The translations under genes and the position numbers were made by a program. A model generated the notes under the pieces. That model did not search any database. It was not told the DNA's origin and saw only the letters and a list, made by a program, of their open reading frames with translations. A stretch of DNA of 64,000 bases from Vicinamibacterales bacterium. GTDB lineage: Bacteria > Acidobacteriota > Vicinamibacteria > Vicinamibacterales > JAKQTR01. The stretch spans positions 248,529-312,528 of the forward strand of contig JALOKU010000001.1 of the NCBI GenBank assembly GCA_025456345.1, in the 5' to 3' direction. Positions 5,720 to 64,000 of the stretch are shown one piece after another. Position 1 is the stretch's first letter. Each line of letters begins with the position of its first letter.

Positions 5720-5748
5720 TTGACCCAGCCGGATGCCGAGCGTAGGCT
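5720..5748 (+). promoter_or_regulatory. Candidate sigma70-type promoter upstream of the kinase gene
   Basis: TTGACC (5720-5725), 17-nt spacer, TAGGCT (5743-5748), about 36 nt upstream of ATG 5784. This is a sequence match only. Confidence 0.3.
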
Positions 5749-5783
5749 TGGCCCGTCGCTCCGGAACCTGGAGGGTCCCGCCC

Positions 5784-8480
5784 ATGCCTGCCGCCGTTGG
5801 CGCGCGTTTCGGGCACTACGAACTCCTTTCCCGTATCGGTGCGGGAGGGATGGGCGAGGTCTTCCGCGCCCGCGATCTCGATCTGGAGCGCGACGTCGCC
5901 ATCAAGTTCCTGCCTGCGGCGTACGCCACAGACGCCGATCGGCTGGCGAGGTTTGCCCAGGAGGCCCGCGCCGCCTCGGCGTTGAACCACCCCAATATCG
6001 TCACCATCCACGAGATCGGCCAGGCGTTCGGCCAGCCGTACATCGTGATGGAGTTGGTCGAGGGCCTCACCCTGCACGACATGATCGGCCGGGGCCGGAT
6101 CGAGCCGAAGCGGGCGATCGGCCTGGCCGCGCAGATCGCCGAGGGCCTCTCCAAGGCCCATGGCGCGGGCATCGTGCACCGCGATCTCAAGCCCGACAAC
6201 GTCATGGTGACCCGCGACGGGTTCGCCAAGGTCCTCGACTTCGGCCTCGCGAAGCTGCGCCTGGATCGGGACTTTCCGCGCACGCCGAAGCAGGCCTCGG
6301 ACGGCGACGACACGCGCGTCGGGCCGGCGACGGCCCTCGGGGCCATCCTCGGGACCGTCGGCTACATGTCGCCCGAGCAGGCGGCCGGACAGCCGGCCGT
6401 CGCGCAGTCCGACCAGTTCTCCCTTGGCGCGATCGTGTACGAGCTGGCCACCGGGCAGCGGGCCTTCGCGCGCCAGACCTCGGTCCAGACGCTCTCGGCC
6501 ATCCTCGAGAGCGAGCCGACGCCGCTGCAGGAGCTGAATCCCACGTTCCCCGCAACCGCGCGGTGGATCGTGGAGCGCTGCCTGGCCAAGCGCCCCGAGA
6601 ACCGCTACGCGTCGACCGGCGACCTCGCCCACGACCTGCGGGACGTGCGGGACCACTTCAGCGAAGTGACCACCGGGATGCGGACGAGCGCCATCCGGAA
6701 GTGGGCGGCCAGCCCCCGTGTCCGGCGTCGCGGGTTGATTGGCGCCACCGTCGTGCTCACGCTGTTCGGGTTGCTGGCGGTGCCGGCGGTGAACGATTTC
6801 CTCAGGTCGACGTTTGGATTCAGCCGGATCCCCGACGAGAAGCGCGTCGCGGTGATGCCCATCGAGTGCCTCGGCGGCACCGAGGAATACCGCGATTCCT
6901 GCAAGGGCATGCTGGATTTCATCGTCAGCAAGCTGGGCGAGCAGGACCGGTTCCAGGGCAGCGGCGGCATCTCGGTCGTGCCCGCCGTCGATATCCGCCA
7001 GGGAGGGCCATTGACGGTCGATGCCGTCCGGAAGCGCTTCGACGCCGGACTGGCGGTCGCCGTGACGTCTACCGGCACCAGCGGGCGCGTCACCTACGCC
7101 GTGAGCGTGATCGACACGGCGCTGCACAAGCAGCTCCGTTCCGCCCAGGGGAGCCTGGTGGAGGGGGAAGGCACCCTGCTCGACAGAATCGTCAAGGAGA
7201 TCGTCGAATTGCTCGACCTTGCGATGACCGACGATGCGCAGGCGGCCCTGCGGGCAGGGGGCACCAACTCGGCAGAAGCGGCCTCGCTCTACGCGCAGGG
7301 TCTGCAGTCTCTGCCGATCCAGGCCGGCCGCTCCGCCCTCGAACGCCAGGACCAGGAGCGCAGCCTGGAGCAGGCCATCGCGCTCTTCACCCGGGCTGTC
7401 GAAATCGACCCGGGCTACGCCTACGCGCATGCCAGCCTGGCCGAGGCGTACCTCCGCCTGTTCAGGCTGAATCGGAACCTCGAGTACTTCAAGCTGGCGG
7501 AGGCCCACTGCCAGCGAGCGCTGAAGCTGGACGAACTGGTCGGGCAGGCGTGGCAGACCCTCGGGAACATCCACACGGAGGTCGGCCGCGCCGACGAGGC
7601 ACTGGGCGATCTGGCGAAGGCGCAGGCGCGGATGCCTCGCAGTCCCGAGGTGCTTCGGGACCTGGCCGGGGCCTATACGCGGCTCGGCCGCAAGGATGAG
7701 GCGGAGGCGCAGTTCAAGAAGGCGATCGCGTTGCGCCCCGACTCCTGGTCGCTCTACTGGTACTACGGCGGCTTCCTGTACCGGCAGAACCGCTACAAGG
7801 AGGCAGAAGCCGCCTTCACGCTGGCGCTGGCTCGGGTGCCGGACAACGCGCGGCTCTGGTCGAGCCTGGGCGGCACGCGGATCGCGCTGGGCCGCACGGA
7901 AGACGCCCGGACCGCGCTCGAGCGGTCGATCGAGCTTCAACCGATCGCGTCGGCGGCGTCCAATCTCGGGACGATCTACTACCAGCGTCGCGACTACCCT
8001 GCGGCGGTGGTGAACTACGAGAAAGCGACCGCCCTCAGCCCGCGCGACTACCGGATGTGGCGGAACCTCGCGGCCGGGTACGACAAGGCGCCCGGCCAGC
8101 GCGACCGCGCGGCCGAGGCGTACCGGAAGGCCCTCGACCTGGCCGAACAGGAGCGCGTCCTCGACCCGAATGACGGGCGGCTCGTCATCGAGATGGCCGA
8201 CAGCGCGGGCATGCTTGGCGACAAGCCGAGGGCGTTGGCGCTCACGGCGGAGGCGATCACGCTGGCGCCCGAGCAGAGCGAAGTCCAGTACATGGCCGCC
8301 GACATCTACGAGACGCTCGGCGACCGCGCATCGGCGCTCCAGTGCCTCGCGCGGGCCCTGCGCGCCGGCTACCAGCGGACGCTCCTCGAGACTTCGCCCA
8401 GTTTCGCAAGCCTCCGGGCCGATCCGCGCTACAAGAAACTGATCGCTTCACTGCCGGCAGAGCCGGCGAAGAGACCTTAG
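5784..8480 (+). CDS. Ser/Thr protein kinase with one TM helix and a C-terminal TPR region
   Basis: GGAGGG RBS upstream of ATG 5784 (internal Met of ORF 5733..8480). Hanks motifs GAGGMGEVF, VAIKFL, HRDLKPDNV, DFGLAK and GTVGYMSPEQ. TM helix LIGATVVLTLFGLLAVPAV. Multiple TPR-like repeats extend to the C-terminus. Confidence 0.9.
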   Translation: MPAAVGARFGHYELLSRIGAGGMGEVFRARDLDLERDVAIKFLPAAYATDADRLARFAQEARAASALNHPNIVTIHEIGQAFGQPYIVMELVEGLTLHDMIGRGRIEPKRAIGLAAQIAEGLSKAHGAGIVHRDLKPDNVMVTRDGFAKVLDFGLAKLRLDRDFPRTPKQASDGDDTRVGPATALGAILGTVGYMSPEQAAGQPAVAQSDQFSLGAIVYELATGQRAFARQTSVQTLSAILESEPTPLQELNPTFPATARWIVERCLAKRPENRYASTGDLAHDLRDVRDHFSEVTTGMRTSAIRKWAASPRVRRRGLIGATVVLTLFGLLAVPAVNDFLRSTFGFSRIPDEKRVAVMPIECLGGTEEYRDSCKGMLDFIVSKLGEQDRFQGSGGISVVPAVDIRQGGPLTVDAVRKRFDAGLAVAVTSTGTSGRVTYAVSVIDTALHKQLRSAQGSLVEGEGTLLDRIVKEIVELLDLAMTDDAQAALRAGGTNSAEAASLYAQGLQSLPIQAGRSALERQDQERSLEQAIALFTRAVEIDPGYAYAHASLAEAYLRLFRLNRNLEYFKLAEAHCQRALKLDELVGQAWQTLGNIHTEVGRADEALGDLAKAQARMPRSPEVLRDLAGAYTRLGRKDEAEAQFKKAIALRPDSWSLYWYYGGFLYRQNRYKEAEAAFTLALARVPDNARLWSSLGGTRIALGRTEDARTALERSIELQPIASAASNLGTIYYQRRDYPAAVVNYEKATALSPRDYRMWRNLAAGYDKAPGQRDRAAEAYRKALDLAEQERVLDPNDGRLVIEMADSAGMLGDKPRALALTAEAITLAPEQSEVQYMAADIYETLGDRASALQCLARALRAGYQRTLLETSPSFASLRADPRYKKLIASLPAEPAKRP

Positions 8481-8505
8481 TACGGCGGCATCACGGAGGT
8501 ACTTC

Positions 8506-8880
8506 ATGGAGCTAGCGTTCGTGAAGGTGGGTCCGAAAGTGCGCGGCAGCCGATTCCACTTGGGTGTAGCGCACGCGAAGATCTACAAGGTCGACGGCGA
8601 GTATCGGGTGACGACTCCTGCTGAAGTGAACGGCCGGGAGAAGGAGTTCAGGATCCTGAACATGACGTCCGAGCCAGCAAGGGTCACGCTGTCGGAGGAC
8701 ATTGTCGGCCGCGGCGCCGGTCTTATCACCGTCCCCGGAGAGGGCATGATAACGATTCCGATCGCCAAGGGCGCTTGGGGAGTGCGGTCATACTCGGTGG
8801 CCATGGATACGCTTGGGGGATTCGTCACGGCCCACGGCAACTCCGACCCCGTCATCATCATCGACCCGCCAGCCAACTAG
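8506..8880 (+). CDS. Small hypothetical protein (124 aa, beta-rich), downstream partner of the kinase-TPR gene
   Basis: GGAGG RBS 7 nt upstream of the ATG. Starts 25 nt after the kinase stop on the same strand. Third-position GC is visibly lower than in its neighbours. I recognise no family. It ends ...YSVAMDTLGGFVTAHGNSDPVIIIDPPAN. Confidence 0.6.
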   Translation: MELAFVKVGPKVRGSRFHLGVAHAKIYKVDGEYRVTTPAEVNGREKEFRILNMTSEPARVTLSEDIVGRGAGLITVPGEGMITIPIAKGAWGVRSYSVAMDTLGGFVTAHGNSDPVIIIDPPAN

Positions 8881-8890: not shown

Positions 8891-9805
8891 CTACGCCCCA
8901 TCGCCGAGGATGCTGTCGAGCCGCTGCTCGACGGTGTCCTCGAGCGTGAAGCCCATCACCTGCAGGTAGTGGAGCGCCGAGTCGAGCAGCGCGCTTTGCG
9001 GCACCAGCCCCACCATCTCGACGCGGCTGACGCCCGAGCCGAAGCGCCGGAGTTCCGTCTTGACGCCCTCGAGGATGCGATAGAGGGGCGTCTCGGTGTA
9101 GTTGCCCACCGTGATGTTCAGCAGCGCCACGTTCCGGTTGCGGTCGAGGGCGGGGTAGAAGTGCACGCCCGGCATTCCCGTCGCCGGGTTTGACAGCACG
9201 GCCGCCACCCACTGGGCCGCCTCCTCGTCGGGCGTCGTGAAGTACGCCTTGAAGTTCACGATCGGCATGCGCGCGCCGATAATCGTCGCGCCCTTATCCG
9301 GCGGGAACACGTCGGGCCCGAAGTCGGGCTTCCACACCGGGTCGCCGATCTTCGCGGCGAACCCCTCGTACTCGCCCTCGCGGATGTTCTCGATGTCGCG
9401 CCGCATCGGCTTGCGGGCCGATTCGGCGAACAGGTAGACGGGCAGCTGGAAGCGCGCGGCCACCGCTTCGGCGAACTCCACGGACCAGGCCACCGCGTTC
9501 GCGATAGGCGCGTTCCGGAGCGCGACGAAGGGGAAGACGTCCACCGCCCCGATGCGCGGGTACTCGCCCTCGTGCTGGCGCATGTCGATGTGCTCGAGCG
9601 CGTCCTGGTAGAGCAGGTAGCCGCCCTGGAAGATCGCGTCCTTCCGGCCGGTGAAGGAGTAAATCGTCCGGTTGCGCACCTGGTCCATCGAGACGTCCAG
9701 CACGACCAGGCCGGGGACGGCCTCGAGCTTCTCGCGCAGCGACTGGATGAACGCCTCGTCACGGCCCTCACACACATTCGGGACGACGGAGATGATCTGC
9801 GACAT
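8891..9805 (-). CDS. ftcD: Glutamate formimidoyltransferase (FtcD N-terminal-type)
   Basis: 304 aa. The N-terminus MSQIISVVPNVCEGRD matches the VPNxSEGR start of formiminotransferases. Length and overall pattern are consistent. Confidence 0.85.
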   Translation of the reverse strand: MSQIISVVPNVCEGRDEAFIQSLREKLEAVPGLVVLDVSMDQVRNRTIYSFTGRKDAIFQGGYLLYQDALEHIDMRQHEGEYPRIGAVDVFPFVALRNAPIANAVAWSVEFAEAVAARFQLPVYLFAESARKPMRRDIENIREGEYEGFAAKIGDPVWKPDFGPDVFPPDKGATIIGARMPIVNFKAYFTTPDEEAAQWVAAVLSNPATGMPGVHFYPALDRNRNVALLNITVGNYTETPLYRILEGVKTELRRFGSGVSRVEMVGLVPQSALLDSALHYLQVMGFTLEDTVEQRLDSILGDGA

Positions 9806-37663: not shown

Positions 37664-38061
37664 CGCCGCTTGCCGCCCGTGCGCACTTCGCGCATGATCG
37701 GCGTGTGGCGGAGCGCGAATCCTCCCGGCTGGTCTACTCATCCGGCGCCGGCCGGGTGTGCCCGCGCTGCGGCTGGCCGGCCGGCAACTGCCGCTGCAGC
37801 ACGCGCGGCGCCGACGCACCGGTCCCCGTGCGCGTGGTTGCGAAGCTTCGCGTCGAGAAAGCGGGGCGGGGCGGGAAGGCGGTCACCCTCGTCTACGACC
37901 TTCCCAGAAACGCCGCGTTTCTCAAAGAGCTGTCCCGCGAACTGAAGCAGGCCTGCGGCGCCGGAGGCACCGTCCTGGACGATGCCATCGAGATCCAGGG
38001 CGACCTGCGCGACCGCATCCGCGATCTGCTCCTGAAGAAGGGTTTCGGCGTCAAAGGGTGA
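37660..38061 (+). CDS. yciH: SUI1/YciH-family translation initiation factor
   Basis: ATG at 37660 overlaps the ytxJ stop (ATGA). CPRCGWPAGNCRC zinc-knuckle-like segment, then GRGGKAVTLV...LKQACGAGGTV...IEIQGD, typical of SUI1. Confidence 0.8.
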   Translation: MTPLAARAHFAHDRRVAERESSRLVYSSGAGRVCPRCGWPAGNCRCSTRGADAPVPVRVVAKLRVEKAGRGGKAVTLVYDLPRNAAFLKELSRELKQACGAGGTVLDDAIEIQGDLRDRIRDLLLKKGFGVKG

Positions 38062-38117
38062 CGGTCCGCGGAGCGGATTCAGTGCGTCCGGCAGGCGTGC
38101 TGGAATGGAGGTGCCGC

Positions 38118-40286
38118 ATGATCGGGCTCCTGCTCGACGCGGCCGGCCGCATCGGCGCGGGCCCGGCCGAGACCGAGGACGACCGCGTCCGCCGCCTCAT
38201 CTGGTCTGCCACGCTGATATGCGCGGCGCCGCTGTCGGCCCTCATGGCCGTCGCCTTCGCCGTGCTCGGCCTTCGTCTGGCGGCGGCGGTCTGGGCTATC
38301 GGCGCGGCATTCTGGCTGGCGGAATTGCTGCTCTTTCACCTGCTCCGCCGCGGCCTGAACGGGTTCGCCCTGGCCAGCCAACTCGCGTGCGTCGTGTTTG
38401 CGTTTGTCGGTTCGATCAGCCTGGGCGGGCCCCTCTCCTCCGGCGGCCTCATCCTCATGGGGCTCATCGGTCCGTTCTACGCCCTGGTGTTTCCCCGGCC
38501 ACGCCGTGCGGCCTGGCTCCTCGTCGCCTGCGTCGTGTCGGTCGCCGCCAGCGTCGCGCTCGCCGGGATGCTCCCATGGGCTCAGGTGCTGCCTCCCGTC
38601 GTCAATCTGGTGATGTTCGGGGCCACCCTCACCGTGGTGGCGATCTTCGTGTTCGTGACACTGCGTTTCTTTGTCCGCGAGCGCGACAGGGCGTTGGCTC
38701 TTCTCCGGGAAGCGCAGGATCGAATCTCGAGGCTTCTCGAGTCGTCACCGCGCGCGTCCGAGACCGTTCCCGAGTGGTCGAGATCTGTCGCGAAGGACAT
38801 CGGTGCCGCCATCGGGGCCGACGCGATCGGTATCTGGGAACTGGAGGGCGGGGGCCTGATCCCCGTGTCAAACCAGGATCTCCCGCCGCCTTCCGTCGAG
38901 GAACTCGCTGCGGCGCTCTCCGCGGCGGGCTCGCGATTCATCGAGAGGACTGACGGAGTGGCCGTGCCCCTGGCAGGCATGAGCGGCGAGCTATGCGGCG
39001 CCCTCGTGGTGCATGGCGCGGGGCTGGTCTGGGGCGAGAGCGAACGGCGCCTCCTCGCCGGGCTGGCCCATCAGCTTGGCGCGGCGCTCGACATGGGCCG
39101 GATGCGCCGGCAGCTCGACGTGGCCGAGCAGCGGCGCGCGAGCACGCGTCGCGAGATGCAGGCGCGCGGCATTGCGACGCTGCAGGTCTGCCGGTCCTGC
39201 GGCCGGTGCTACGACCACGTGGCGGCCCGCTGCGCGGCCGACGGGGCGACGCTCGAATCGCCCCGCACGCTGCCGTACCGCCTGCTCGATCGATACCGCT
39301 TCCTGCGGGTGCTCGGACAGGGCGGCATGGGCATGGTCCTCGCGGCGCATGACGAGAAGCTCGCGCGCGATGTCGCCGTCAAGCTCATCCGGGCGGAGCA
39401 CTTCAACGACCAGGGCATGAAAGAACGATTCGAGCGGGAGGCCCGCGCGGTGGCCCGCATCCAGCACCCGGGCGTGATCAACCTCCACGATTCCGGCGAA
39501 CTCGAAGACGGTACGGCGTTTCTCGTGATGGAGAAGCTCACCGGGTGCGATCTCGCCGCCGTGCTCAGGTCCGCCGGCCGTGGAACGCCCGCACAGGTGG
39601 CCGCCCTGATCCGTGAGGGGTGCGCGGCCCTCGGGGCCGCCCACCGGGCCGGCGTCGTGCATCGCGACGTGAAGCCGGAGAACATCTTTCTCGTCGAGAC
39701 TCCGGGCGGATTCCTGGTCAAAGTGCTCGATTTCGGCCTGGCGAAATCGATGACGATCGAGAAGGGGCTCACGCAAACGGGAATCATGGTCGGGACACCT
39801 CGCTACATGTCCCCCGAGCAGGTTCGCGGCGAGGACGTCGACGCGGGCACCGACATCTACTCGTTCGCGGCCGTCTGCCACGAGGCGCTCACGGGCCGGA
39901 CGGCGGTCTCGGGCGACGACCTCGCGCGGATCCTGATCAACGTCTGCACCGAAGTGGCGGCCGTCCCTTCGTCGATCGTTCCCGGGCTTCCGCTCGAACT
40001 GGACCAGGTGTTCGCATCGGCGCTCTCCAAGGACAGGGCTCGACGGCCCGGAGACATCGAGCGGTGGGGAGCTGCTGCCGCCCGGATCCTGGAACACCTT
40101 CTTCCGGATTCCGAGGCGGCAGGATGGCCGGCCACCGGGGAGCTCAGGCGCGCGGAGCGTCAACCGCCACCCGGTGAGGCGGATACGGTTGACACGGCCG
40201 CTGCATCGCCCGCCCTGCCTTCCAGCCCGGCCGAGACCACCGAGACCACCGGCGTCGACGCTGACCGGACCGGCCGTCGTCGATGA
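38118..40286 (+). CDS. Sensor Ser/Thr kinase: polytopic membrane N-terminus, GAF-like domain, Cys4 ribbon, C-terminal Hanks kinase
   Basis: ATG at 38118 (internal Met of ORF 37758..40286). Five or six TM helices in residues 25-185. GAF-like residues 215-330. CRSCGRCYDHVAARC (358-372). Kinase motifs GQGGMGMV, VAVKL, HRDVKPENI, DFGLAK, GTPRYMSPEQ. Confidence 0.85.
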   Translation: MIGLLLDAAGRIGAGPAETEDDRVRRLIWSATLICAAPLSALMAVAFAVLGLRLAAAVWAIGAAFWLAELLLFHLLRRGLNGFALASQLACVVFAFVGSISLGGPLSSGGLILMGLIGPFYALVFPRPRRAAWLLVACVVSVAASVALAGMLPWAQVLPPVVNLVMFGATLTVVAIFVFVTLRFFVRERDRALALLREAQDRISRLLESSPRASETVPEWSRSVAKDIGAAIGADAIGIWELEGGGLIPVSNQDLPPPSVEELAAALSAAGSRFIERTDGVAVPLAGMSGELCGALVVHGAGLVWGESERRLLAGLAHQLGAALDMGRMRRQLDVAEQRRASTRREMQARGIATLQVCRSCGRCYDHVAARCAADGATLESPRTLPYRLLDRYRFLRVLGQGGMGMVLAAHDEKLARDVAVKLIRAEHFNDQGMKERFEREARAVARIQHPGVINLHDSGELEDGTAFLVMEKLTGCDLAAVLRSAGRGTPAQVAALIREGCAALGAAHRAGVVHRDVKPENIFLVETPGGFLVKVLDFGLAKSMTIEKGLTQTGIMVGTPRYMSPEQVRGEDVDAGTDIYSFAAVCHEALTGRTAVSGDDLARILINVCTEVAAVPSSIVPGLPLELDQVFASALSKDRARRPGDIERWGAAAARILEHLLPDSEAAGWPATGELRRAERQPPPGEADTVDTAAASPALPSSPAETTETTGVDADRTGRRR

Positions 40287-41281
40287 ACCGGCGCGTGGCC
40301 GGCCGGGAGTGGTGCTGGTACTCCCGCCGCGCTCCGGCCGGATGCTATGATGACGGTCGGGTACACCACGTGAACGTCAGCCCCCGTCTCCGTCGCGGCG
40401 CGAGTGCCGTCGCTGCCGCCATCCTCGCGATCCTGATCGCCCTGACGCCGGTGTGGGCCGCCGACGGCCCCGGCGCCGTGGCCTACGCCGCGATGATGAA
40501 GGCCTGGCAGGCCGGCAAGCTCGACGACGCGATCAGGTCCGCCGACGCCGTGCTGAAGGCCGAGCCTGCCAACGTCGCCTTCCTGAACGCCATCGGCGGC
40601 CTCTACTGCGAGAAGGCGCAGAAGGCGAGCGTCTTCACGAAGCTCTCATGGGCCGGCAAGTGCCACAGCGTCTGGGAGCGCGCGCTCACGCTTGATCCGA
40701 AGAACGTCCAGACCCATACGAGCCTGATGCAGTACTACCTGCGGGCGCCCGGCATCGCGGGCGGCGGCACCGACAAGGCGAAGGCCGAAGCCGACCGGAT
40801 GGCGGCGCTCGACCCGGTAGCCGGCGAGATCAGCCGGGGCCACATCGCCCGGTCCGGGAAGCTGCCGGCCGAGGCCGAACGGCACTATCGGAAGGCCGTG
40901 GAGATCGACGCCACCGGCCGGCGCGGGCCCGTCGAACTCGCGTCGTTCTACGCGGGGGAGCAGCGCTGGAGCGACGCGCGCGGCGTCTTCGAGGCCCGGC
41001 TGACGAAGAACCCCGGCGACTCGTTCTCGGCATACATGCTCGCGCGGCTGATGCAAGCCCAGGGTGCGGATCTTCCGCGGGCCCTCGACCTGATCGATCG
41101 CTATCTGGCCTCGCCCGCGCTCGAAGGCGGCCCCACCCACGCCGACGCGTGGTTCCGGAAGGGGCAGGTGTTCGACAAGCTCGGCCGTCGTGCCGACGCG
41201 GTCGCCGCGCTGGAGACCGCGCTGAAGCTGGATCCCAGGCACGCGCTCGCGTCGCGCGAACTCCAGAAGCTCAAGGGCTGA
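40283..41281 (+). CDS. TPR-repeat protein with a hydrophobic N-terminal anchor or signal sequence
   Basis: ATG at 40283 overlaps the stop of the upstream kinase (ATGA). An alternative GTG start at 40370 lies directly before the hydrophobic segment AVAAAILAILIALTPVWAAD. The protein is TPR-like helical repeats throughout. Confidence 0.7.
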   Translation: MNRRVAGREWCWYSRRAPAGCYDDGRVHHVNVSPRLRRGASAVAAAILAILIALTPVWAADGPGAVAYAAMMKAWQAGKLDDAIRSADAVLKAEPANVAFLNAIGGLYCEKAQKASVFTKLSWAGKCHSVWERALTLDPKNVQTHTSLMQYYLRAPGIAGGGTDKAKAEADRMAALDPVAGEISRGHIARSGKLPAEAERHYRKAVEIDATGRRGPVELASFYAGEQRWSDARGVFEARLTKNPGDSFSAYMLARLMQAQGADLPRALDLIDRYLASPALEGGPTHADAWFRKGQVFDKLGRRADAVAALETALKLDPRHALASRELQKLKG

Positions 41282-41287: not shown

Positions 41288-44257
41288 ATGTCGTTGTCGA
41301 GCGACGACGAGCCGACCATGCTCCCGGCGCCGGGACCCGGCGCAGCCGATGCGGGGAGCGACGGTCCCCGCCTCGCCGGCGGGCAGATCATCGGCCCGTA
41401 CCGGATCGCAGGGCTCCTCGGCAGGGGAGGCATGGGGGAGGTCTACGACGCCGAGCACCTCGAGCACGGCCGCCGCGTGGCGCTCAAGGTGCTGAGCCAG
41501 CGGCTCGCAGGCGCCGACGACCGCGCGCGGTTCCTGCGCGAAGGCCAGCTGGCGGCTTCCCTCAATCATCCGAACACGGTCTTCGTCTTCGGCAGCGAGG
41601 AGATCAGCGGCAACCCCGTCATCGCGATGGAGCTGGTGGCGGGCGGGACGCTGAAAGACGTCGTTGACCGCGACGGGCCGATGGCGCCGCCGGCGGCGGT
41701 CGACGCGATCCTGCAGGTGGCGGCTGGCCTCGACGCCGCGCTGGCCTGCGGCGTCCTTCACCGGGACGTGAAGCCGTCGAACTGCTTCGTCGAGCCCGAT
41801 GGCACGGTGAAAGTCGGCGACTTCGGCCTGTCGATTCCGGTGCTCGCGCCCGACGTCACGCAGCCGGGCGAGATGGCCACGTTCCAGGGCACGCCCCAGT
41901 TTGCCGCGCCGGAGCAGCTGCGCGGCCAGCGGCTGGATGTCCGCGCCGACATCTATGCCGTCGGAGCCACGCTGCATTACCTGCTCACGGGCCGCCCGCC
42001 GTTCGAGGACCGCGATCTGATGGCGCTACTGACGAAAGTGGCCACCGAGCTGCCCGCACCGCCCAGCCGGCCGGGAACCGTCATCGCGCCGGGCCTGTCG
42101 GCGGTCGTCCTCCGGTGCCTCGCGAAGGACCCGGCCGCCAGGCCTTCGTCGTACGCCGAACTCGAGGTCAGCCTGCGCCCGTTCAGTTCGGCCGTGCCCG
42201 TGCCCGCGAGCCTCGGCCTGCGCGCCGTCGCCGGGTTGATCGACGCGCTGCTGCTGGGCGCCGTCACCGCGCCGCTCGCGATCGCGCCCGTGCTCGAGTT
42301 GGTCGGCGACAACAGCATCAACGCCTCGATTCGCTACTCGAGCCCCCGCGCCCTCGGCAGTCCGTTGTGGGTCACGCTGGCTGCCGGCGCGCTCATCGTC
42401 CTGTACTACGGCCTGCTGGAAGGGCGGTGGGCGAGGTCGCTCGGCAAACGGGTGTGTGGTCTCGAGGTCGTTGCGACAGGGGGCGGACCTGCCGGGTTCC
42501 GCCGAGCGATGCTGCGCGTGCTGGTGTTCGTGCTGCCGTACTGGATCGTGACCGTGCCCAAGGTGGTCGCGGCCGTGGCCGGCGCAACCGGAGGGCGCTC
42601 CTCGACAGGCTGGTGGGGGGAGGCGCTCTACTGGGGCGGCGACCTGCTGCTGCTGCTCATGTTCTCGTCCATGCGCCGGAGCAACGGGTTTGCCGCGTGG
42701 CACGACCTCGCGTCCGGGACCCGCGTGACCGCGACGGCCCGGCGGAAGGGCCGGGAGGCGATTGACGCGCCCGCGGCGGCCGTTCCGGCCGGCTCGGATG
42801 CGTCATCGCGGGATGCTGTCGGACCCTACTCCGTCATCGGGGCGGTCGGCCCGACGACGGGCGGCGGCGTCGTGCTCCTCGGTTTCGACGGCGCGCTCAA
42901 ACGGCATGTGTGGATTCACTGGCTGCCTCCCGGCGAGCCCGCCGTCGGCGCGGTCCGTGCGCGCCTGGGCCGCGCGGGCCGCCTGCGCTGGGTCAACGGC
43001 CGGCGCTCCGGCGATGAGGCGTGGGACGCCTACGAGGCCCCGGACGGGGCGCCGCTCCTGGAGGTGTGCGCCGCCGCGCAGCCGTGGAGCGTCGTGCAGC
43101 ATTGGATGGCGGACCTTGCGCGGGAGCTGGAGGCGGCGTCGGTGGACGGGTCGACGCCCGTGCTGGCGCTCGATCGAGTCTGGATCACGCGAAGCAGCGG
43201 GGCGCGCCTGTTCGACTTTCCGGCACCGGGACTCGGTGCCGTGACAGATTCCGGATCCGGTGAAGCGGTGGCGGACGCGCAGCACTTCCTCGCTCGCGTG
43301 GCGGCGCATGCCCTCGGTGCCGGACCACAGGCGGCGCCGGCGCGCGCGCTGCCGCACGGACCGCTGCCGCGCCTGGCGCAGCACACGCTCGCCACGCTGG
43401 AGCGGAGCGGATTCCCGTCGGGAACTGCTGTCGCGGAGCGGGCGGCCGCGTTGACGCAGGGCCCCGACCGCGTGACCCGCGCACGCCGCGCGGCGTCGAT
43501 CCTGCTCGCCAATGTCCCCCTGTTCTTCGCCCTGCTTGCGCTGTCGATCGGGCTGCCCACTGCCGTCCGTCTGCTGGAGACCCAGTTCCTGGAGATGAGC
43601 AGGGCCTTGGTGGAGATACGGACACTCGACGGAAAGACGGACCAGGAGTCCGTGACGGCGCGAGAGGCGCTGGAACTGTACGCTGCGGACCGCTTCCGCG
43701 CGAAACTCGCCGATGAGACAACGTGGCATGACCCGCGTTCCGCCGGCCTGCTGACGCCGCTGAGGCCGATCGCCGTCCGCATCCTGGCCGGCACGTCCTC
43801 CCCGTCGGACGAAGAACGCCGCGCCGCGCATGCCGCCGCCGCCGCTCGCCTCGGGAACCCGGTCTCTATCAGGAGACAGGCAGTCAGCATCGCCACCCTT
43901 CTGCCGGCCATCGTCCTGCTGGTGTCGGCGATCGTCGCGGTGCTTTCGGCACTGCTGTTCAGGGGCGGCCTGCTGCTGAGGTCGCTCGGCGTTGCCGTCG
44001 TCTCTCCGCGCGGGTCGGACGCCTCGCGGGTCAGGGCGGCGTGGCGCGCGATCGTGGCCTGGAGCCCGGTCCTGCTGCTCTGGCTCTACCTGTTGGCGTG
44101 GTCGGCGGCTGGCGGCGAGGTGTTCGACGCGTTCTCGAACTGGTGGGTGCCAGCTGCGGCGGCCGCCGTCGCGATCCTTGGCAGCGCGTGGGCGATCCTC
44201 CACCCGTCGAGCGGCGCCGCGGAGCGCCTGACGGGCACCTGCCTGGTTCCGCGCTAG
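41288..44257 (+). CDS. Ser/Thr kinase fused to RDD domain, kinase-like degenerate domain and second RDD-like membrane domain
   Basis: 989 aa, starting 6 nt after the TPR gene. Kinase motifs GRGGMGEVY, VALKVL, HRDVKPSNC, DFGLS, GTPQFAAPEQ. RDD domain 1 (residues ~308-482): LRAVAGLIDALLLG, SLGKRVCGLEVV, WHDLASGTRV. A degenerate kinase-like block spans ~510-650. A C-terminal RDD-like block spans ~905-989. Confidence 0.85.
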   Translation: MSLSSDDEPTMLPAPGPGAADAGSDGPRLAGGQIIGPYRIAGLLGRGGMGEVYDAEHLEHGRRVALKVLSQRLAGADDRARFLREGQLAASLNHPNTVFVFGSEEISGNPVIAMELVAGGTLKDVVDRDGPMAPPAAVDAILQVAAGLDAALACGVLHRDVKPSNCFVEPDGTVKVGDFGLSIPVLAPDVTQPGEMATFQGTPQFAAPEQLRGQRLDVRADIYAVGATLHYLLTGRPPFEDRDLMALLTKVATELPAPPSRPGTVIAPGLSAVVLRCLAKDPAARPSSYAELEVSLRPFSSAVPVPASLGLRAVAGLIDALLLGAVTAPLAIAPVLELVGDNSINASIRYSSPRALGSPLWVTLAAGALIVLYYGLLEGRWARSLGKRVCGLEVVATGGGPAGFRRAMLRVLVFVLPYWIVTVPKVVAAVAGATGGRSSTGWWGEALYWGGDLLLLLMFSSMRRSNGFAAWHDLASGTRVTATARRKGREAIDAPAAAVPAGSDASSRDAVGPYSVIGAVGPTTGGGVVLLGFDGALKRHVWIHWLPPGEPAVGAVRARLGRAGRLRWVNGRRSGDEAWDAYEAPDGAPLLEVCAAAQPWSVVQHWMADLARELEAASVDGSTPVLALDRVWITRSSGARLFDFPAPGLGAVTDSGSGEAVADAQHFLARVAAHALGAGPQAAPARALPHGPLPRLAQHTLATLERSGFPSGTAVAERAAALTQGPDRVTRARRAASILLANVPLFFALLALSIGLPTAVRLLETQFLEMSRALVEIRTLDGKTDQESVTAREALELYAADRFRAKLADETTWHDPRSAGLLTPLRPIAVRILAGTSSPSDEERRAAHAAAAARLGNPVSIRRQAVSIATLLPAIVLLVSAIVAVLSALLFRGGLLLRSLGVAVVSPRGSDASRVRAAWRAIVAWSPVLLLWLYLLAWSAAGGEVFDAFSNWWVPAAAAAVAILGSAWAILHPSSGAAERLTGTCLVPR

Positions 44258-44476
44258 GCCGCGTCCTCCGTCCGCGCCGCCCTCGATTGCATTTTCTGCA
44301 CGCTCATCGCATCGGACCGCCGCAGAAATCGCCACATGCCTGCCAGGCGAGCGTTTCGGTTCCCTCAAGTCGTTGTCCCGACACGAGATGCGGAGAAGGG
44401 ATTCGTCCGTCCGTTGGCGTGCTGATTGCTCACGCCACGCCAGAGGGGCAGGCAGGGCCCGTTGGGAGGGATTGGC

Positions 44477-44845
44477 ATGTTGCATCAGGCAGCCGTTCTT
44501 GTATACGATGATTATCGTATGAGCAAGCAGGCGATTTCCGTCACGTTGTCGCCGGACAACCTGGTCTGGCTGCGGGGGCGTGCACTGGCTGACGGCAGGG
44601 TCAGCCTCAGTGAGTTCCTCGACAGGCTCGTCACGCGGGCGCGGACCGGCGGGGCGCCGGCGCGTCCGGCGAGGTCGATGAGGGGCGCCCTTGCGGTGAA
44701 CGCCGACGAGGACGTCGTTGCGACGCCGTCGGTCGAACCCGACGTGTGGGCAGCCTGGGAGGCGAAGTGGGAGGGGCTGCTCGAGGGCCTCGACCCTTCA
44801 TCGCCGACGCCCAGGCGGGGAGGCGCACGTGGCCAGGGTGCCTGA
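44477..44845 (+). CDS. vapB: Ribbon-helix-helix (CopG/VapB-like) antitoxin
   Basis: ATG at 44477 has a GGAGG RBS 7 nt upstream. The alternative ATG at 44519 gives MSKQAISVTLSPDNLVWLRGRA..., a typical RHH N-terminal strand plus helix. The stop overlaps the start region of the PIN gene. Confidence 0.6.
   Translation: MLHQAAVLVYDDYRMSKQAISVTLSPDNLVWLRGRALADGRVSLSEFLDRLVTRARTGGAPARPARSMRGALAVNADEDVVATPSVEPDVWAAWEAKWEGLLEGLDPSSPTPRRGGARGQGA
44503..44520. promoter_or_regulatory. 7-bp perfect inverted repeat ATACGAT-gatt-ATCGTAT at the 5' end of the antitoxin gene
   Basis: 44503-44509 and 44514-44520. It overlaps the ATG at 44519. It could be an autoregulatory operator if the gene starts at 44519, but it is intragenic if the gene starts at 44477. 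Confidence 0.3.
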
Positions 44846-45239
44846 CGCCGCGGTCTGCGACACCAACGCGCTGCTTTACTACGGCTTCGGCAGCCGGCGG
44901 CTGGGCAAGGTCGCTGCGGCGCTCTTCGACGCCTGCGACGCGCAGGACACGATCATCTACGTGCCGGCCGCCGTCATCCTGGAGTTCGGCCTCGTGCTTG
45001 GCGGCCGGCGTTCTCCGGTCCGGGTCCGCCTGCGCGGCTTCTTTGAGGACCTCTTCGCGAACCCGGCATTCCAGCCGTTCGATCTCACGCCGGAACAGGT
45101 CTATCTGGCGGACGAGGAGCGGCCCAATAACGACCCGTTCGATGGGTTGATCTGCGCGGCGGCGCGGCGCCTCGGCCTGCCGCTCATCACCTGCGACACT
45201 GACATCGCCGACTGGGGACGCGTCCGCGTCGTCTGGTAG
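44838..45239 (+). CDS. vapC: PIN-domain toxin (VapC-like ribonuclease)
   Basis: GTG at 44838 (or 44829) overlaps the antitoxin stop at 44843-44845. VCDTNALLYY carries the first PIN acidic residue. EFGLVL, NDPFDGLICAAA and ITCDTD match the remaining acidic positions. Confidence 0.75.
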   Translation: MPDAAVCDTNALLYYGFGSRRLGKVAAALFDACDAQDTIIYVPAAVILEFGLVLGGRRSPVRVRLRGFFEDLFANPAFQPFDLTPEQVYLADEERPNNDPFDGLICAAARRLGLPLITCDTDIADWGRVRVVW

Positions 45240-45349: not shown

Positions 45350-48235
45350 ATGGTCGGCCAGACTATCTCGCACTACCGCATCGCCGAGCGGCTGGGCTCG
45401 GGCGGGATGGGTGTGGTCTACCGGGCCCAGGACCTGCGCCTGGAGCGGCCGGTCGCCCTCAAGTTCCTGCCTGAAGCGCTGACCAAGGACCCCTCGGCCA
45501 TGGAGCGCCTGCTTCGCGAGGCGAAGGCCGCCTCGTCGCTTCACCATCAGAACATCCGCACGATCTTCTCGTTCGACGAGTACGAGGGACGCCAGTTCAT
45601 CGTCATGGAGCTGCTCGACGGGCGTCCGCTCGACCGCGTGGTCGCGGACGGGCCGATGGCGCCCGCCCTCGTGCTGTCGATGGCAGCCCAGGTTGCCGAC
45701 GCCCTCGACGTCGCGCATGCCCGGGGCATCGTGCATCGCGACATCAAGCCCGCCAACCTGTTCCTGACCGGCTCGGGTCTTCTGAAGGTGCTGGACTTCG
45801 GCCTGGCCAAGACGCACCACGTGGCGCCGGCAACCGATTCCGCCATCGACGGCCAGGCGACCATGCTGGACCTGACGATGTCGGGCACGACGATCGGAAC
45901 GGCGTCGTACATGGCACCCGAGCAGGTGCTCGGCGAATCGGTCGACAGGCGCAGCGACCTGTTTTCGTTCGGTGCCGTGCTGTACGAAATGGCCACCGGG
46001 CGCCAGGCGTTCTGCGGGCCGACGCTGGGTGCGATTTTCGACGCGATCCTGAACCGCCCGCCCTTACCGCTGCAGTTGTTGCAGCCGGATCTGCCGGCAG
46101 AGCTCGGCGCGATCATCAGCAAGGCGCTCGAGAAGGACCCGGCCTGCCGGTATCAGAGCGCTGCCAAGATGCGCACGGACCTCGAGTCCGCGAGGCAGAT
46201 CCTGGAGGCGGACTCGGGCGCAGATCTCGGCCCCCGCGCGGCGGAGACTCGCTCGCGGTCAAGACCGGCGGGCGGCGGCCGCCGCTGGCCCGCCGCCGCC
46301 GCAGGCGTGACCGCCGCAGCCGTGCTTGCCCTCGTGGCTGCCGGGCTGTGGATGGGCGTGCCGCGCGCCACGTACTATCCGTGCGTGGTGGTCGGCGAGT
46401 TTCGGAGCACCATCGACGAGGTGCCGGCGAAGCTCGTGGAGTTCCAGGTGAAGCGGGCGCTCAGCCAGGTGCCGGAGTTCGTGGTGTATGACCAGCGCGG
46501 CTACGAGCTCGCGCTGAAGGCGGCGGTTCCAGACGAGACACACGACGCAGCGTCCTGGAAGCGGTGGATGCCTGGCCGGCGGACCAGCCGTCCGGCCGGG
46601 CCCGCCGTGCGGGTCACCGCGGACATCGGGCCGTCGCTGGGCAACATCGACGTCGCGCTCTCCATCACCACCAGAGCACGCGCGGAACACCGTGCGATGC
46701 CATACAAGGGCGTGAACGCCTTCTTCGACCGGGGCATCGACGACATCGCCAGGCTCGCCATCGCCCGCTTTCGCGAGGACGACCACGGAGCGGCGGCGGC
46801 CGGGGCCCTGCAGTACAGGCCCGCGCGGACGCTGCTGTCGCATCATCTCGACGCGGTGAGGATCTTCTGGCGGGCCCACGACGCGTGGACGCGCCTGGAC
46901 CTGGGCGCCGAACGCGACCTGCAGCGCGCCCTCGAGATTGACGCCGACTTCGCGCTTGCGCGCCTCACGCTGGGGGAGATCCGGATCTTCCAGATGAGGA
47001 TGAAGCCCGCGATCGACGAGATCGAGCGGGCGCGGCAGACCCCGGACGCGCTCACCGACGCCGAGCGGCTCCGCAGTTCGGCGCTGCTCGCGCGCGCGTC
47101 GCTCAACGCGCCGGACGAGAGGGTCGGGCTGCAGCGCCTGATCGAGCTCGAGCCCACGAGCAAGGAGTACGTCTTCGAGCTTGGCGAATCGTATTTCCAC
47201 ACCGCCGACATTGACGAAGCGAGCGTGCAGTACGAGCGGGCGCTCCGGCTCGAGCCCGACTACGCCACGGCGCACAATCACCTTGGCTACTGCTACTCGT
47301 GGAGCGGTGATCACAGGAGAGCCCAGGAACACTTGACCCGCTACCTGGAGCTGGACCGGTCAGCGAACGCCTGGGACAGTCTCGGCGACGCGTACATGCA
47401 CGCCGGCGAATACGCGAAAGCCGCTCACGCGAAGCAGCAGGCGCTGGCGCAGGCGCCCGACCTCTACTTCGCGGTCAAGCGCCTGATTGCCATCGACATC
47501 CTCAGCGGCCGGCTCTCGGAGGCGGCGCGCAAGGTCCAGGCCGCGCTGGGGAGCGCGGCGGACGCCCTGCAGAGGGCCGAGTTCTACGCGGCCCGCGCGT
47601 ACGGCGAACTGCGGGCAGGGCGCCTCAACCAGGCTGCCGACGCCTGTCGCGCCGGCCTCGCGCTCATCGCGCCAGACAGCGATGACTCGCCCGCCGATGA
47701 ACTGTTGTGGCTTCAGGGCCAGGCCGCCCTCGCACGACACGATACTGCAGCCGCGGCCAGGGCGCTGGCCAGGCTGCACGAGATGGTGGCGAAGGGCCGC
47801 ATCTCCGAAACGAACTACCGGCCGGTTTACAAGTACTGGCTGCACCTTGCCGCCCTGGTCGATGCCGCGGAAGGACGGCGGACCGAGGCGGCGGCCCGGC
47901 TGGGCGACCTCGACCACGTCAGGCAGAAGCTGGGCTATTGGGGCACACCGTACGACCAGGCGTTCTTCCTTGATGAGATCGGCCGCGTGCGCGAGTCCCT
48001 CGGTGATGCCGTGCGGGCGGAACGCGACTACCGCGATGCCCTGGCCTACAATCCGCACTACGCGCTCGCGCGCGTCCATCTGGGGATGCTCCTGCGCTCC
48101 GCAGGCAGGGCCGAGGAGGCCCGCCGCGAGCTCGCGGCGTTTGCCGCCGAGTGGAAGGACGCCGACCCTGCGGTGCCCGAACTGAAGCAGCTTGCCGGCC
48201 TGAGCACGGACAGCGGCCGGCCGCTTCGACCGTAG
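45350..48235 (+). CDS. Ser/Thr protein kinase with TM helix and C-terminal TPR region
   Basis: 961 aa. Motifs GSGGMGVVY, VALKFL, HRDIKPANL, DFGLAK, GTASYMAPEQ. TM helix AAAGVTAAAVLALVAAGLW. Long TPR region. Confidence 0.9.
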   Translation: MVGQTISHYRIAERLGSGGMGVVYRAQDLRLERPVALKFLPEALTKDPSAMERLLREAKAASSLHHQNIRTIFSFDEYEGRQFIVMELLDGRPLDRVVADGPMAPALVLSMAAQVADALDVAHARGIVHRDIKPANLFLTGSGLLKVLDFGLAKTHHVAPATDSAIDGQATMLDLTMSGTTIGTASYMAPEQVLGESVDRRSDLFSFGAVLYEMATGRQAFCGPTLGAIFDAILNRPPLPLQLLQPDLPAELGAIISKALEKDPACRYQSAAKMRTDLESARQILEADSGADLGPRAAETRSRSRPAGGGRRWPAAAAGVTAAAVLALVAAGLWMGVPRATYYPCVVVGEFRSTIDEVPAKLVEFQVKRALSQVPEFVVYDQRGYELALKAAVPDETHDAASWKRWMPGRRTSRPAGPAVRVTADIGPSLGNIDVALSITTRARAEHRAMPYKGVNAFFDRGIDDIARLAIARFREDDHGAAAAGALQYRPARTLLSHHLDAVRIFWRAHDAWTRLDLGAERDLQRALEIDADFALARLTLGEIRIFQMRMKPAIDEIERARQTPDALTDAERLRSSALLARASLNAPDERVGLQRLIELEPTSKEYVFELGESYFHTADIDEASVQYERALRLEPDYATAHNHLGYCYSWSGDHRRAQEHLTRYLELDRSANAWDSLGDAYMHAGEYAKAAHAKQQALAQAPDLYFAVKRLIAIDILSGRLSEAARKVQAALGSAADALQRAEFYAARAYGELRAGRLNQAADACRAGLALIAPDSDDSPADELLWLQGQAALARHDTAAAARALARLHEMVAKGRISETNYRPVYKYWLHLAALVDAAEGRRTEAAARLGDLDHVRQKLGYWGTPYDQAFFLDEIGRVRESLGDAVRAERDYRDALAYNPHYALARVHLGMLLRSAGRAEEARRELAAFAAEWKDADPAVPELKQLAGLSTDSGRPLRP

Positions 48236-57271: not shown

Positions 57272-57306
57272 TGTGCGGAGCGCCTAGCGGCTGGAGGAGA
57301 GCAGAC

Positions 57307-59325: not shown

Positions 59326-59533
59326 GGGCGCCGGCGACGTGCTCGGGCGCCCGGTCAGCACCACGAGCGCAGCGCACGACCACGAACGTGTGAAGGGCGT
59401 GGGCGATCCCTGCGCCGTCCCGGGCTCCCGGCCGCCCGAACGTTCTTCTGGCCCGCTCCGTATTACCCTATATGCGCGCGTCCCCACGTGTGTCCTGCGG
59501 TGCATTCGTAATTCGGCTTGGAGGTCTGTAGAC

Positions 59534-62925: not shown

Positions 62926-62948
62926 AGCCTCGTCTCGAGTCGTGCCTC

Positions 62949-63356
62949 TCAGTGCCTCGGGCCGCGGATTTCGATCTCCGGATCTCTCAACGTGCGGTCA
63001 CCGAACTTGATGTCGTACTTGTAGAAACCGGGGTCGGTCTTGTCGAGGGGGAGCGAGGCCTGGAAGCGCCCGCGCAGCTGCTGCACCTCGATGGGCCCGT
63101 CGGGCAGCGCCCGCACCTTGAGCGGGACCAGGGCCCGGCGTCGCAGCGCAATGCGAGGGGACACCTCAAGAGGCAGGAAGCCTCCGATCTGGACGGTCCC
63201 CGCAAGGCTGGCCGGGAGACCCTGCACGTCCCACACGATGGTATCGCCGTACCGGACGATGATCTGTTCAGGGGTGATACGGAGATCGTAATCCCCTCGA
63301 CGCGGCTCCTCGATGAACTCCACTGTGACGACGCGCTTGACTGGCCTGTACCGCAT
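62949..63356 (-). CDS. Small hypothetical protein (135 aa, beta-rich), downstream partner of a TPR gene
   Basis: AGGAGG RBS 6 nt upstream of ATG 63356. It starts 63 nt after the stop of the upstream TPR gene on the same strand. It ends ...GFYKYDIKFGDRTLRDPEIEIRGPRH, resembling the C-terminus of the 8506..8880 product. Confidence 0.55.
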   Translation of the reverse strand: MRYRPVKRVVTVEFIEEPRRGDYDLRITPEQIIVRYGDTIVWDVQGLPASLAGTVQIGGFLPLEVSPRIALRRRALVPLKVRALPDGPIEVQQLRGRFQASLPLDKTDPGFYKYDIKFGDRTLRDPEIEIRGPRH

Positions 63357-63419
63357 CTGTGCCTCCTGGCGTGAGTGTCGAAGGACCGGCGAGACGTCAT
63401 TGCCTCGCCGGGCATCGCT

Positions 63420-64000
63420 CTAGCCCTCCTGCAACAACGCTGCAACCTGCGGCAGCTTCAGAATCGACTCGAGATCGAGATCGCTGGCCGCCCTCGACCG
63501 GCTGTATCCTCGCTCGATCGCCTTCCGAAGCCAGATGACAGCCTCGCCCCGCTGGCCGAGCAGCGCGTGCACGACGGCGCGCTTGTACAACACGGTGCCG
63601 TCGTCCGGCTGCAGGGTGACGGCCAGCCGGATGTGCTCGAGCGCCTGCGCATGGTCTCCCAGCTTCGCATCGAACACCGCGTGGCGAGCGAGCGCGATCG
63701 CATCCGTGCGGTCGGTCTTCAGCTGTTCGCCCGTGAGGCGCGCCGCGAGGCGATACTCGTCAGCTGCCTCCCGCTCACGGCCGAGCCGTCGATACACATC
63801 CCCGAGGTTTCCGTGCTTCACTGCCGACCTGGGCTCGAGCGCCAGCGCCCGTGTCAGGAGATCCGCGGCCTCCTGGTAGCGCCTTTCGTCGACGTAGAGC
63901 ATGGCGAGGTTCGACATCATCGTCGCGTCCATGTCGGAGACGCTTTCGTAGAGGGCGATGGCCTTCCGCGGTTCGCCGTTGTAGCTGTATGCGGCCGCCA
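63420..64000 (-). CDS. TPR-repeat protein, C-terminal part (gene continues beyond the right edge; possibly another kinase-TPR protein)
   Basis: The ORF track starts it at Met 63932. My translation upstream of that Met stays open and TPR-like up to the window edge (...AAAYSYNGEPRKAIALYESVSD-MDATMMSNLAMLYV...). The C-terminal tail LRKAIERGYSRSRAASDLDLESILKLPQVAALL parallels LARALRAGYQRTLLETSPSFASLRADPRYKKLI of the kinase at 5784..8480. Confidence 0.75.
   Translation of the reverse strand, partial: AAAYSYNGEPRKAIALYESVSDMDATMMSNLAMLYVDERRYQEAADLLTRALALEPRSAVKHGNLGDVYRRLGREREAADEYRLAARLTGEQLKTDRTDAIALARHAVFDAKLGDHAQALEHIRLAVTLQPDDGTVLYKRAVVHALLGQRGEAVIWLRKAIERGYSRSRAASDLDLESILKLPQVAALLQEG

Follow-up and report, generated by a model that had tools for sequence, protein, structure and literature searches.

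Hanks-type kinases are abundant in Acidobacteria, and their substrates and partners are almost entirely unknown. In RRNPP cassettes, a cytoplasmic receptor is combined with a short secreted pro-peptide that carries a signal sequence. The kinase PknG has a tetratricopeptide repeat (TPR) domain and a small beta-sandwich FHA substrate, OdhI/GarA (PMC8546545). Here, a stretch of 64,000 nt (the window) from a metagenome-assembled genome of a Vicinamibacterales bacterium (Acidobacteriota; GenBank assembly GCA_025456345.1, contig JALOKU010000001.1, positions 248,529 to 312,528) was analysed for two small genes, gene A (8506..8880, + strand) and gene B (62949..63356, - strand), each located directly behind a gene for a Pkinase-TPR protein on the same strand. 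The two-gene module, consisting of a kinase with a transmembrane helix and TPR repeats followed by a small gene, is well supported as real and conserved for both kinds of small gene, and A and B are two previously unannotated protein families of unknown function.

Gene A is an open reading frame (ORF) of 124 codons with an ATG start. Its ribosome-binding site, GGAGG at 8495-8499 (+), was read directly from the sequence and lies 6 nt 5' of the ATG. The TAG stop codon of the upstream kinase gene is at 8478-8480, leaving a gap of 25 nt, and both the strong ribosome-binding site and this spacing agree with the initial annotation, made from the DNA letters alone. The next gene on the 3' side is convergent (8891..9805, -) and annotated as FTCD_N, so that gene A occupies the whole gap between the kinase and FTCD genes. 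No promoter-like or terminator-like site was found around gene A, the gap between kinase and gene A included. The GC content at third codon positions (GC3) is 0.79, compared with 0.90-0.96 in the neighbouring genes, which confirms the dip noticed before, and the overall GC content is 0.616 compared with 0.67-0.69. The codon positions of gene A follow the order GC3 > GC1 > GC2 expected of a coding frame, whereas an antisense ORF at 8583..8876 has GC2 > GC1, a non-coding pattern. The product (about 13 kDa, no Cys) is identical to NCBI MUE61_01085, a "MAG: hypothetical protein" of a Vicinamibacterales bacterium, and it recurs, in the same gene neighbourhood, on several contigs of NCBI assemblies and JGI samples. 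Gene A is a genuine protein-coding gene because of its ribosome-binding site and spacing, its GC3 pattern, its homologous clusters, a ratio of nonsynonymous to synonymous divergence (dN/dS) of 0.27 and its AlphaFold2 model, the last three of which are described below.

Gene B encodes 135 residues, also without Cys, and starts 63 nt after a TPR gene that crosses the window end; its ribosome-binding site, AGGAGG at 63362..63367 (-), was likewise read from the sequence and lies 5 nt 5' of the ATG. The part of the upstream gene inside the window (63420..64000, -) is the 3' part of a B-type kinase gene encoding the TPR C-terminus, and its full-length orthologues are Pkinase-TPR proteins of 849-883 aa.

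Homologues of both small genes were found linked to kinase genes throughout. For A, a Pkinase-TPR gene is directly upstream in 13 of 13 distinct loci, namely the window population (L001-L006), L011/L012, L013, L014 (on the same contig as L020), L015-L019, L021-L023 and L045. According to public gene calls, the co-oriented kinase homologue ends 24-31 nt upstream in these loci, and the overall range of the spacing is 6-31 nt. The flanking genes differ in L017 (a radical-SAM gene upstream and cytochromes downstream), L018 and L022, so the pairing of A with the kinase is not merely inherited synteny. For B, a kinase is upstream in all 23 loci that have upstream DNA. The B loci with gene calls (L007, with the same arrangement in L008 and L009, and L010) encode a Pkinase-TPR protein of 849-865 aa upstream and a convergent Tricorn-like protease downstream, and the metagenome loci with any upstream DNA carry the B-type TPR C-terminus there in 20 of 20 cases. 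The small-gene family and the kinase subtype co-vary without exception. Every locus examined was linked to a kinase or TPR gene, and the conserved kinase-TPR module suggested in the initial annotation has therefore stood, non-syntenic A loci included.

One locus differs in the state of its kinase gene. In L015 (4859-6309), the A-family gene (P0037, 102 aa) is intact, and the kinase is present as three short fragments inside a 237-aa TPR ORF. The ABC-F gene of this locus is also cut, and the arrangement is due either to a natural deletion or to an error of assembly.

Homologues of A were missed by a word-indexed homology search, which returned A itself only. An exhaustive phmmer search against 1.84 billion representatives gave 22 matches, about 15 of which were proteins of 100-125 aa with 35-51% identity, all ending in G-[NDE]-S-D-P-V-I-I-I-D-P-P. 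P0025 (1360 aa, 10 stretches) and P0030 were set aside as large repeat proteins with repeat or low-complexity matches to 30-residue stretches. A profile search with the A homologues reached at least 361 clusters at E <= 1e-3; among the 120 clusters listed, lengths were 80-133 aa and none had a Pfam domain. The earlier description of A as an orphan thus holds for the word-indexed search only. The few named members among those listed were from Vicinamibacterales or Acidobacteria, except one labelled Rhodospirillaceae, with Vicinamibacterales in the majority, and a scan of 185,579 species genomes by pattern gave five loci, all from Acidobacteriota.

Conservation in family A was counted over 80 members with a mean identity of 33%. 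Residues N52, V98, S113, P115, I117, I118, I119, D120 and P121 are present in 80 of 80 sequences and Y96 in 79. The tail motif S113-D114-P115-V-I-I-I-D120-P121, encoded at 8842..8868 (+), has the family form S-[DE]-P-V-I-I-I-D-P, with seven of its nine positions invariant; at position 114, 67 members have D, 11 have E, and one each has K and R. The invariance of all three tail Ile residues suggests that both faces of the terminal strand are constrained. The invariant N52 is followed by T or S at position 54 in 73 of the 80 members, giving a sequon-like N-x-[TS] motif after the fourth strand; it is probably the conserved Asn of cupredoxin-like folds.

Family B comprises at least 23 clusters of its own. 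Its conserved stretches are V.R..TVEF, GDTIVWDVQGL, GFYKYD and DPEIEIRGPR, and among 22 members P126 is found in all 22, D125, E129, R131, G132 and P133 in 21, and I130 and T122 in 20. The tail motif D125-P126-E-I-E-I-R-G-P133 is encoded at 62958..62984 (-). The peptide strings quoted for the two small proteins in the initial annotation were all found in the sequence. No curated family was found for A or B, or for any of 102 family members (80 A and 22 B), in Pfam, NCBIfam, PHROGs or PADLOC, in agreement with the statement that the small protein could be assigned to none. Searches of the PDB sequences with single sequences and profiles gave chance-level matches only.

Several further observations concern gene B. 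One divergent lineage of the B type has not a single B-family gene behind the kinase but two in tandem, of 137-140 aa and 136 aa (L042 3540-4411, L043 3388-4411 and L044 757-1780). In the B-family protein P0020, the last ~25 residues (SRAASDLDLESILMMPQVAALLRER) are not the B tail and are nearly the C-terminal tail of the B-type kinase; the protein is a recombination chimera or a misassembly, and its contig is only 1.3 kb long. Gene B is always convergent with a Tricorn-like protease gene (Tricorn_N, PDZ_Tricorn, Peptidase_S41; window 56659-62875 (+), L007 6568-12040 and L010 6480-9774), which itself follows a PD40/Peptidase_S9 gene. Since C-terminal tails are what S41/PDZ proteases recognise, it is conceivable that the protease next to B is linked to the conserved B tail. 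The gene A locus has no Tricorn-like protease neighbour.

The kinase A gene (5733..8480, +) encodes a Hanks-type Ser/Thr kinase with a Pfam Pkinase match at 4.7e-45 and many TPR repeats; public gene callers place its start at 5784 (898 aa). The protein consists of a kinase domain (residues ~29-300), one transmembrane helix (~335-355), an extracytoplasmic domain and the TPR repeats. Hydropathy analysis gave a single strongly hydrophobic segment (~335-355), which RVRRR precedes. The positive-inside rule would place the kinase domain in the cytoplasm and the ~560 C-terminal residues, TPR included, outside, and the TPR domain should thus be extracytoplasmic or periplasmic. A and B have no signal peptide and no hydrophobic N-terminus or stretch (maximum 19-residue Kyte-Doolittle value 1.10-1.14) and are predicted to be cytoplasmic. 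Contact between the TPR domain and the small protein, an interaction that the initial annotation had raised, would be topologically awkward and would require export by some other route; it is simpler to suppose that the small protein meets the kinase domain in the cytoplasm. Residues 590-694 of kinase A pass the Pfam TPR-S model ("Tetratricopeptide Repeats-Sensor") with 29.8 bits against a cutoff of 27.6, and the kinase domain, and only this domain, matches the PADLOC PD-T4-6 models at 1e-83 as well as other models. Both matches are read as generic domain homology and are worth recalling given the hypervariable partner.

Five Hanks-type kinases are encoded in the window. The three besides kinase A and the B-type kinase are all on the + strand, at 37758..40286, 41288..44257 (Pkinase fused to an RDD membrane domain) and 45350..48235 (Pkinase-TPR). 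In 37758..40286, the kinase domain is in the C-terminal part of the listed ORF, which is followed by a 332-aa TPR protein (40283..41281). No A-like or B-like gene was found elsewhere in the window, and none stands behind these three kinases. Kinase A and the B-type kinase align colinearly over their full length (30% identity, E=5e-68), and their TPR C-termini, which the initial annotation had called alike, share 30% identity over 166 aa (E=4e-14). The likeness is thus real, but it is weak evidence, because the partner-less Pkinase-TPR protein of 45350..48235 scores 209-243 bits against kinase A, close to the 232-273 bits of the B-type kinases. The A-type and B-type kinases were therefore not upheld as each other's closest relatives, and the kinases do not prove that a module was duplicated.

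Structures were modelled using AlphaFold2 with the family alignments, and fold searches were done using Foldseek against the PDB. The B model is confident (pLDDT 91.5, pTM 0.84) and is an all-beta sandwich. The A model is all-beta and moderately confident (pLDDT 80.5), with the N-terminal 20 residues disordered. Both models place an Asp-Pro immediately before the last strand and the tail as an integral strand of the fold. For B, 21 PDB matches were obtained at E <= 1e-3, mostly cupredoxins, the others being SO1698 and MakC/MakD entries; SO1698, a Shewanella "aspartic peptidase", was first (E=5.8e-5), followed by plastocyanins, pseudoazurins, AcoP, rusticyanin and laccase domains with TM-scores of 0.38-0.46. 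For A, the matches were weak (E >= 0.011) and included cupredoxin domains of multicopper oxidases and nitrite reductases (E ~0.01-0.04, TM-score 0.28-0.44), with SO1698 at rank 31. A viral fold library gave generic beta-sandwich matches only. No conserved Cys, His or Met column was found in the 80 A or 22 B sequences. Judged from the models, a shared cupredoxin-like beta-sandwich class without copper ligands would be a fair description of A and B, in line with the earlier guess of a cupredoxin- or Ig-like fold lacking metal ligands.

Both small genes are divergence islands, with synonymous divergence (dS) about four times that of their flanks. The flanks are 85-100% identical in DNA, and between strains the neighbouring genes are 92-100% identical where the small gene is 47-65% identical. 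The edges of the islands extend ~40 nt into the 3' end of the kinase gene and ~60 nt into the convergent gene downstream. Where the kinases are 73-80% identical as proteins, the A proteins are only 28-49% identical. Between the window and L011, L014 and L021, DNA identity is 63-93% in the 3' region of the kinase gene and 84-97% in the FTCD gene. Across 8470-8880, it is only 32-53% (32-73% with L045 included). Compared with L045, the closest allele, the kinase A tail is 92% identical in amino acids (nonsynonymous divergence, dN, 0.038; dS 0.205), and the small gene is 64.5% identical (dN 0.249, dS 0.93), which gives the dN/dS of 0.27. For B, DNA identity between the window and L039 is 93-100% along the kinase tail, up to a point ~40 nt short of the stop codon, and 82-98% in the Tricorn gene once its last ~60 nt are left out. 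The island between these limits, which takes in ~40 nt of the kinase gene and ~60 nt of the Tricorn gene, has 53-67% identity (window 62900-63460 compared with L039 3204-5422). The kinase tail of this pair is 92% identical in amino acids with a dS of 0.19, and the small gene is 47% identical with a dS of 0.75. Within one B allele class (L025 and L026), the small-gene dN/dS is 0.18-0.20. The divergence-island behaviour is common to both small genes. A four-fold synonymous excess indicates that recombination has brought in old, divergent alleles and that relaxed protein constraint is not the whole cause, although part of the excess could be explained by weaker synonymous constraint, of which the lower GC3 of the small gene is a sign. 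The same signature explains why A looked like an orphan and dips in composition, and why sequence methods failed to connect it with B.

These results are consistent with small protein A being a dedicated cytoplasmic partner of the adjoining membrane kinase, which would act as a substrate or as an adaptor or output protein. The small gene would be co-transcribed or co-expressed with the kinase gene, and the TPR part of the kinase would be a sensor domain facing the periplasm. The invariant S-[DE]-P-V-I-I-I-D-P strand may be a functional element for docking, interaction or assembly, and the rest of A a rapidly diversifying scaffold that would be exchanged between strains as an allelic cassette. 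Gene B, which resembles A in fold class, genomic position, absence of a signal peptide, Asp-Pro-led terminal strand and divergence, may in an analogous way encode the partner of a second kinase with this architecture. The chances are judged to be even that A is, as a whole, such a cytoplasmic all-beta kinase partner lacking a metal site, with a functional tail and a body exchanged as a cassette; the coupling to the kinase, the co-transcription and the role of the tail are the parts that we infer.

Several points weigh against this partner reading. No Ser or Thr is prominent as an acceptor except the invariant S113, which lies inside the tail motif. The A model is only moderately confident and its fold matches are weak (E ~0.01, TM-score 0.3-0.44). 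The small gene of L015 is intact though its kinase is reduced to fragments, and the window holds other Pkinase-TPR genes without such a partner. In L039, a kinase tail 92% identical to that of the window is paired with a small protein only 47% identical, which speaks against the protein body and the kinase evolving closely together. Finally, hypervariability is commoner in exposed or conflict-related proteins than in housekeeping signalling adaptors.

The initial annotation held that A and B share a sequence pattern and are likely paralogues. This was not borne out, and homology of the two sequences cannot be demonstrated. BLASTP of A against B gave E=26 with a 2-residue match. In hhalign, comparison of the B profile with A and then of two growing A profiles with the B profile gave probabilities of 0.2%, 0.9% and 1.1%, with P of 0.015-0.26 across runs, and the addition of the DSSP strings of the models as secondary structure raised the probability to 6% (P=0.024). 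Neither the global nor the greedy mode gave a significant match. Among controls made from the B profile, the real score was reached in 13 of 200 runs with shuffled segments and in 11 of 200 with shuffled columns, and the reversed profile scored 18.0 compared with 17.9. The pairwise and profile alignments thus showed no significant similarity.

A and B may nonetheless be true, very distant paralogues, descended from a duplicated module of kinase and small gene in which the small genes diverged past recognition. Both occupy the same position and orientation behind kinases that align colinearly from end to end, the strands of their models (from DSSP) can be paired off in the same order if an insertion in B at ~66-96 is allowed for, and their lists of fold matches overlap, SO1698 and two-domain laccases included. 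The greedy hhalign alignment is colinear over the C-terminal half and places L...G.Y.Y.V and DP.I.I..P in the register first proposed. Cross-searches with hidden Markov models of the two families against 470 ORFs of the fetched loci gave matches that were all sub-threshold, yet enriched in the other family (14 of 18 and 3 of 7), and a loss of signal is expected for two islands that both diverge extremely fast. On the other side, no comparison gives a significant score, the shuffled and reversed controls equal the real one, and several of the cross-matches pair non-equivalent hairpins in inconsistent registers. In addition, kinase A is as near to the partner-less kinase as to the B-type kinases, and beta-sandwiches converge easily. 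Distant paralogy is accordingly regarded as a serious possibility that falls short of being probable.

A different account of the divergence islands treats the small gene as a polymorphic cassette that has an independent function, for instance in conflict, immunity or recognition, and that sits in a recombination-prone slot and stands outside the kinase pathway. The four-fold dS excess over the flanks implies allele replacement, the type of small gene is uncoupled from kinase identity in L039, a small gene survives beside the degraded kinase of L015, and B is tandemly duplicated in L042-L044. These features would suit such a cassette, but the kinase linkage is perfect in 36 loci of two families, non-syntenic contexts included, the spacing is short and conserved, and the gap contains no promoter-like site. 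No PADLOC defence-system model matched A or B, no PHROG match was obtained for the small proteins, and no mobile-element genes are nearby. We therefore consider an independent cassette unlikely.

The tail has also to be weighed as a site of self-processing. If A and B were beta-sandwiches like SO1698 (DUF1888), the Asp-Pro ~10 residues from the C-terminus would be autocleaved and the terminal strand would stay bound or mediate self-assembly. SO1698 (PDB 3nji, 3njk and 3njm) is the best PDB fold match of B and is also among those of A. The PDB titles name S114A, D116A and P117A mutants of this ~120-residue "aspartic peptidase", positions like those of S113-D114-P115 in A and D125-P126 in B. SO1698 is reportedly cleaved at Asp116-Pro117. 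Against this stand TM-scores of only 0.38-0.48 with root mean square deviations of 5.6-9 A, cupredoxins that match about equally well, and the sequence searches, in which none of 102 members matched the Pfam DUF1888 family and SO1698 was absent from the PDB sequence matches, both at E <= 10. Moreover, the replacement of D114 by E (11), K (1) or R (1) in 80 A members is hard to reconcile with an obligatory Asp-Pro mechanism, and self-processing appears rather unlikely.

An RRNPP-like scheme, in which a precursor encoded by the small gene would release its C-terminal peptide for export and the upstream kinase would sense this peptide through its TPR domain in the periplasm, is very improbable. 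It is true that the gene order is that of a TPR receptor and a small gene whose product ends in a conserved peptide, that the TPR domain is predicted to lie outside the cytoplasm and that Asp-Pro bonds flank the VIII strand, but the proteins have no signal peptide or export motif and are folded domains of 100-135 aa with the tail modelled as an integral strand. The tail is invariant and the body variable, which is the opposite of pherotype systems, and no transporter or protease is conserved at the A locus. The idea that the gene A ORF is a chance open frame in an intergenic spacer, to which its GC and GC3 below those of the neighbours and the lone self-match in the word-indexed search might lend colour, has a negligible chance of being right and is effectively refuted by the family alignment, with hundreds of homologues of conserved length and invariant residues, besides the strong ribosome-binding site, the dN/dS of 0.27 against the closest allele, the AlphaFold2 fold model and the non-coding GC pattern of the antisense ORF.

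The preferred reading, with A as a kinase partner, can be carried further. A and B may form a new class of polymorphic, kinase-coupled, cupredoxin-like cassettes without metal, which would be swapped under balancing or diversifying selection and in which the invariant strand flanked by Asp-Pro would contact the kinase by docking, strand exchange or SO1698-like self-processing. The chances of this extended version seem slim. If it were true, the body would set the strain-specific specificity or identity of an otherwise conserved Ser/Thr kinase pathway. At a minimum, two new families of unknown function are described here, each with a clear genomic signature. As small-protein families fixed behind particular membrane kinases, they are testable candidates for the cytoplasmic output of these kinases, and the tail offers an easy experimental handle through peptides and point mutants. 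Among signalling components, it is unusual to find a conserved kinase combined with a hypervariable cassette-like partner and with a tail of nine residues that is invariant, and this combination hints at strain-level diversification of a signalling pathway.

Two other features of the window were recorded. A likely toxin-antitoxin pair lies between two kinase genes at 44426-45239 (+) and consists of a 173-aa ORF with a PIN domain (7e-11), overlapped upstream by a 139-aa ORF without a Pfam match. The other is an unusual fusion, a 1193-aa ORF at 48268-51849 (-) that contains both an aminotransferase class I/II domain (2e-31) and a phosphoenolpyruvate carboxylase domain, PEPcase_2 (9e-30).

Compared with known systems, the locus resembles RRNPP cassettes (Rap-Phr, PlcR-PapR, NprR-NprX) in the order of a TPR receptor gene and a same-strand small gene with an important, conserved C-terminus, and differs from them in encoding a folded domain without a signal peptide, a membrane kinase and a tail that is invariant rather than specificity-determining. 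With the cupredoxins (plastocyanin, pseudoazurin, amicyanin, Cupredoxin_1 and multicopper-oxidase domains), A and B would share a Greek-key beta-sandwich of 100-135 aa, and their sequence patterns Y.[IV]R[IV].P..[IV].[IV]..GD.[IV].[WF].[NV] and G.Y.Y.[IV] ... [IV].[IV] resemble that of the cupredoxins. Cupredoxins also make up most of the fold matches of both models (TM-score 0.4-0.46), whereas A and B are without the His/Cys/His/Met copper ligands, a signal peptide or a Pfam match at threshold, Cupredoxin_1 being matched by 1 of 80 A members at E=0.012. SO1698/DUF1888 of Shewanella oneidensis is of similar size and, as an all-beta sandwich and the best PDB fold match of B, has a Ser..Asp-Pro ~9-10 residues before the C-terminus, followed by the last strand; it differs in giving no sequence or profile match and TM-scores of 0.38-0.48, and in family A the Asp is not invariant. 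We know of no kinase linkage of DUF1888. PknG with OdhI/GarA is similar in joining a Hanks-type kinase with a C-terminal TPR domain to a small (~13-15 kDa) cytoplasmic beta-sandwich protein. The small proteins described here are not FHA proteins, with no FHA match in Pfam and no FHA domain among the listed fold matches, and the kinase here spans the membrane, with a TPR domain predicted to lie outside the cytoplasm. PknG is soluble and, to our knowledge, odhI and garA are not encoded directly behind pknG and no hypervariability has been described for OdhI. As the best functional analogy, PknG-OdhI may be taken as the nearest functional precedent for a kinase with a dedicated small partner.

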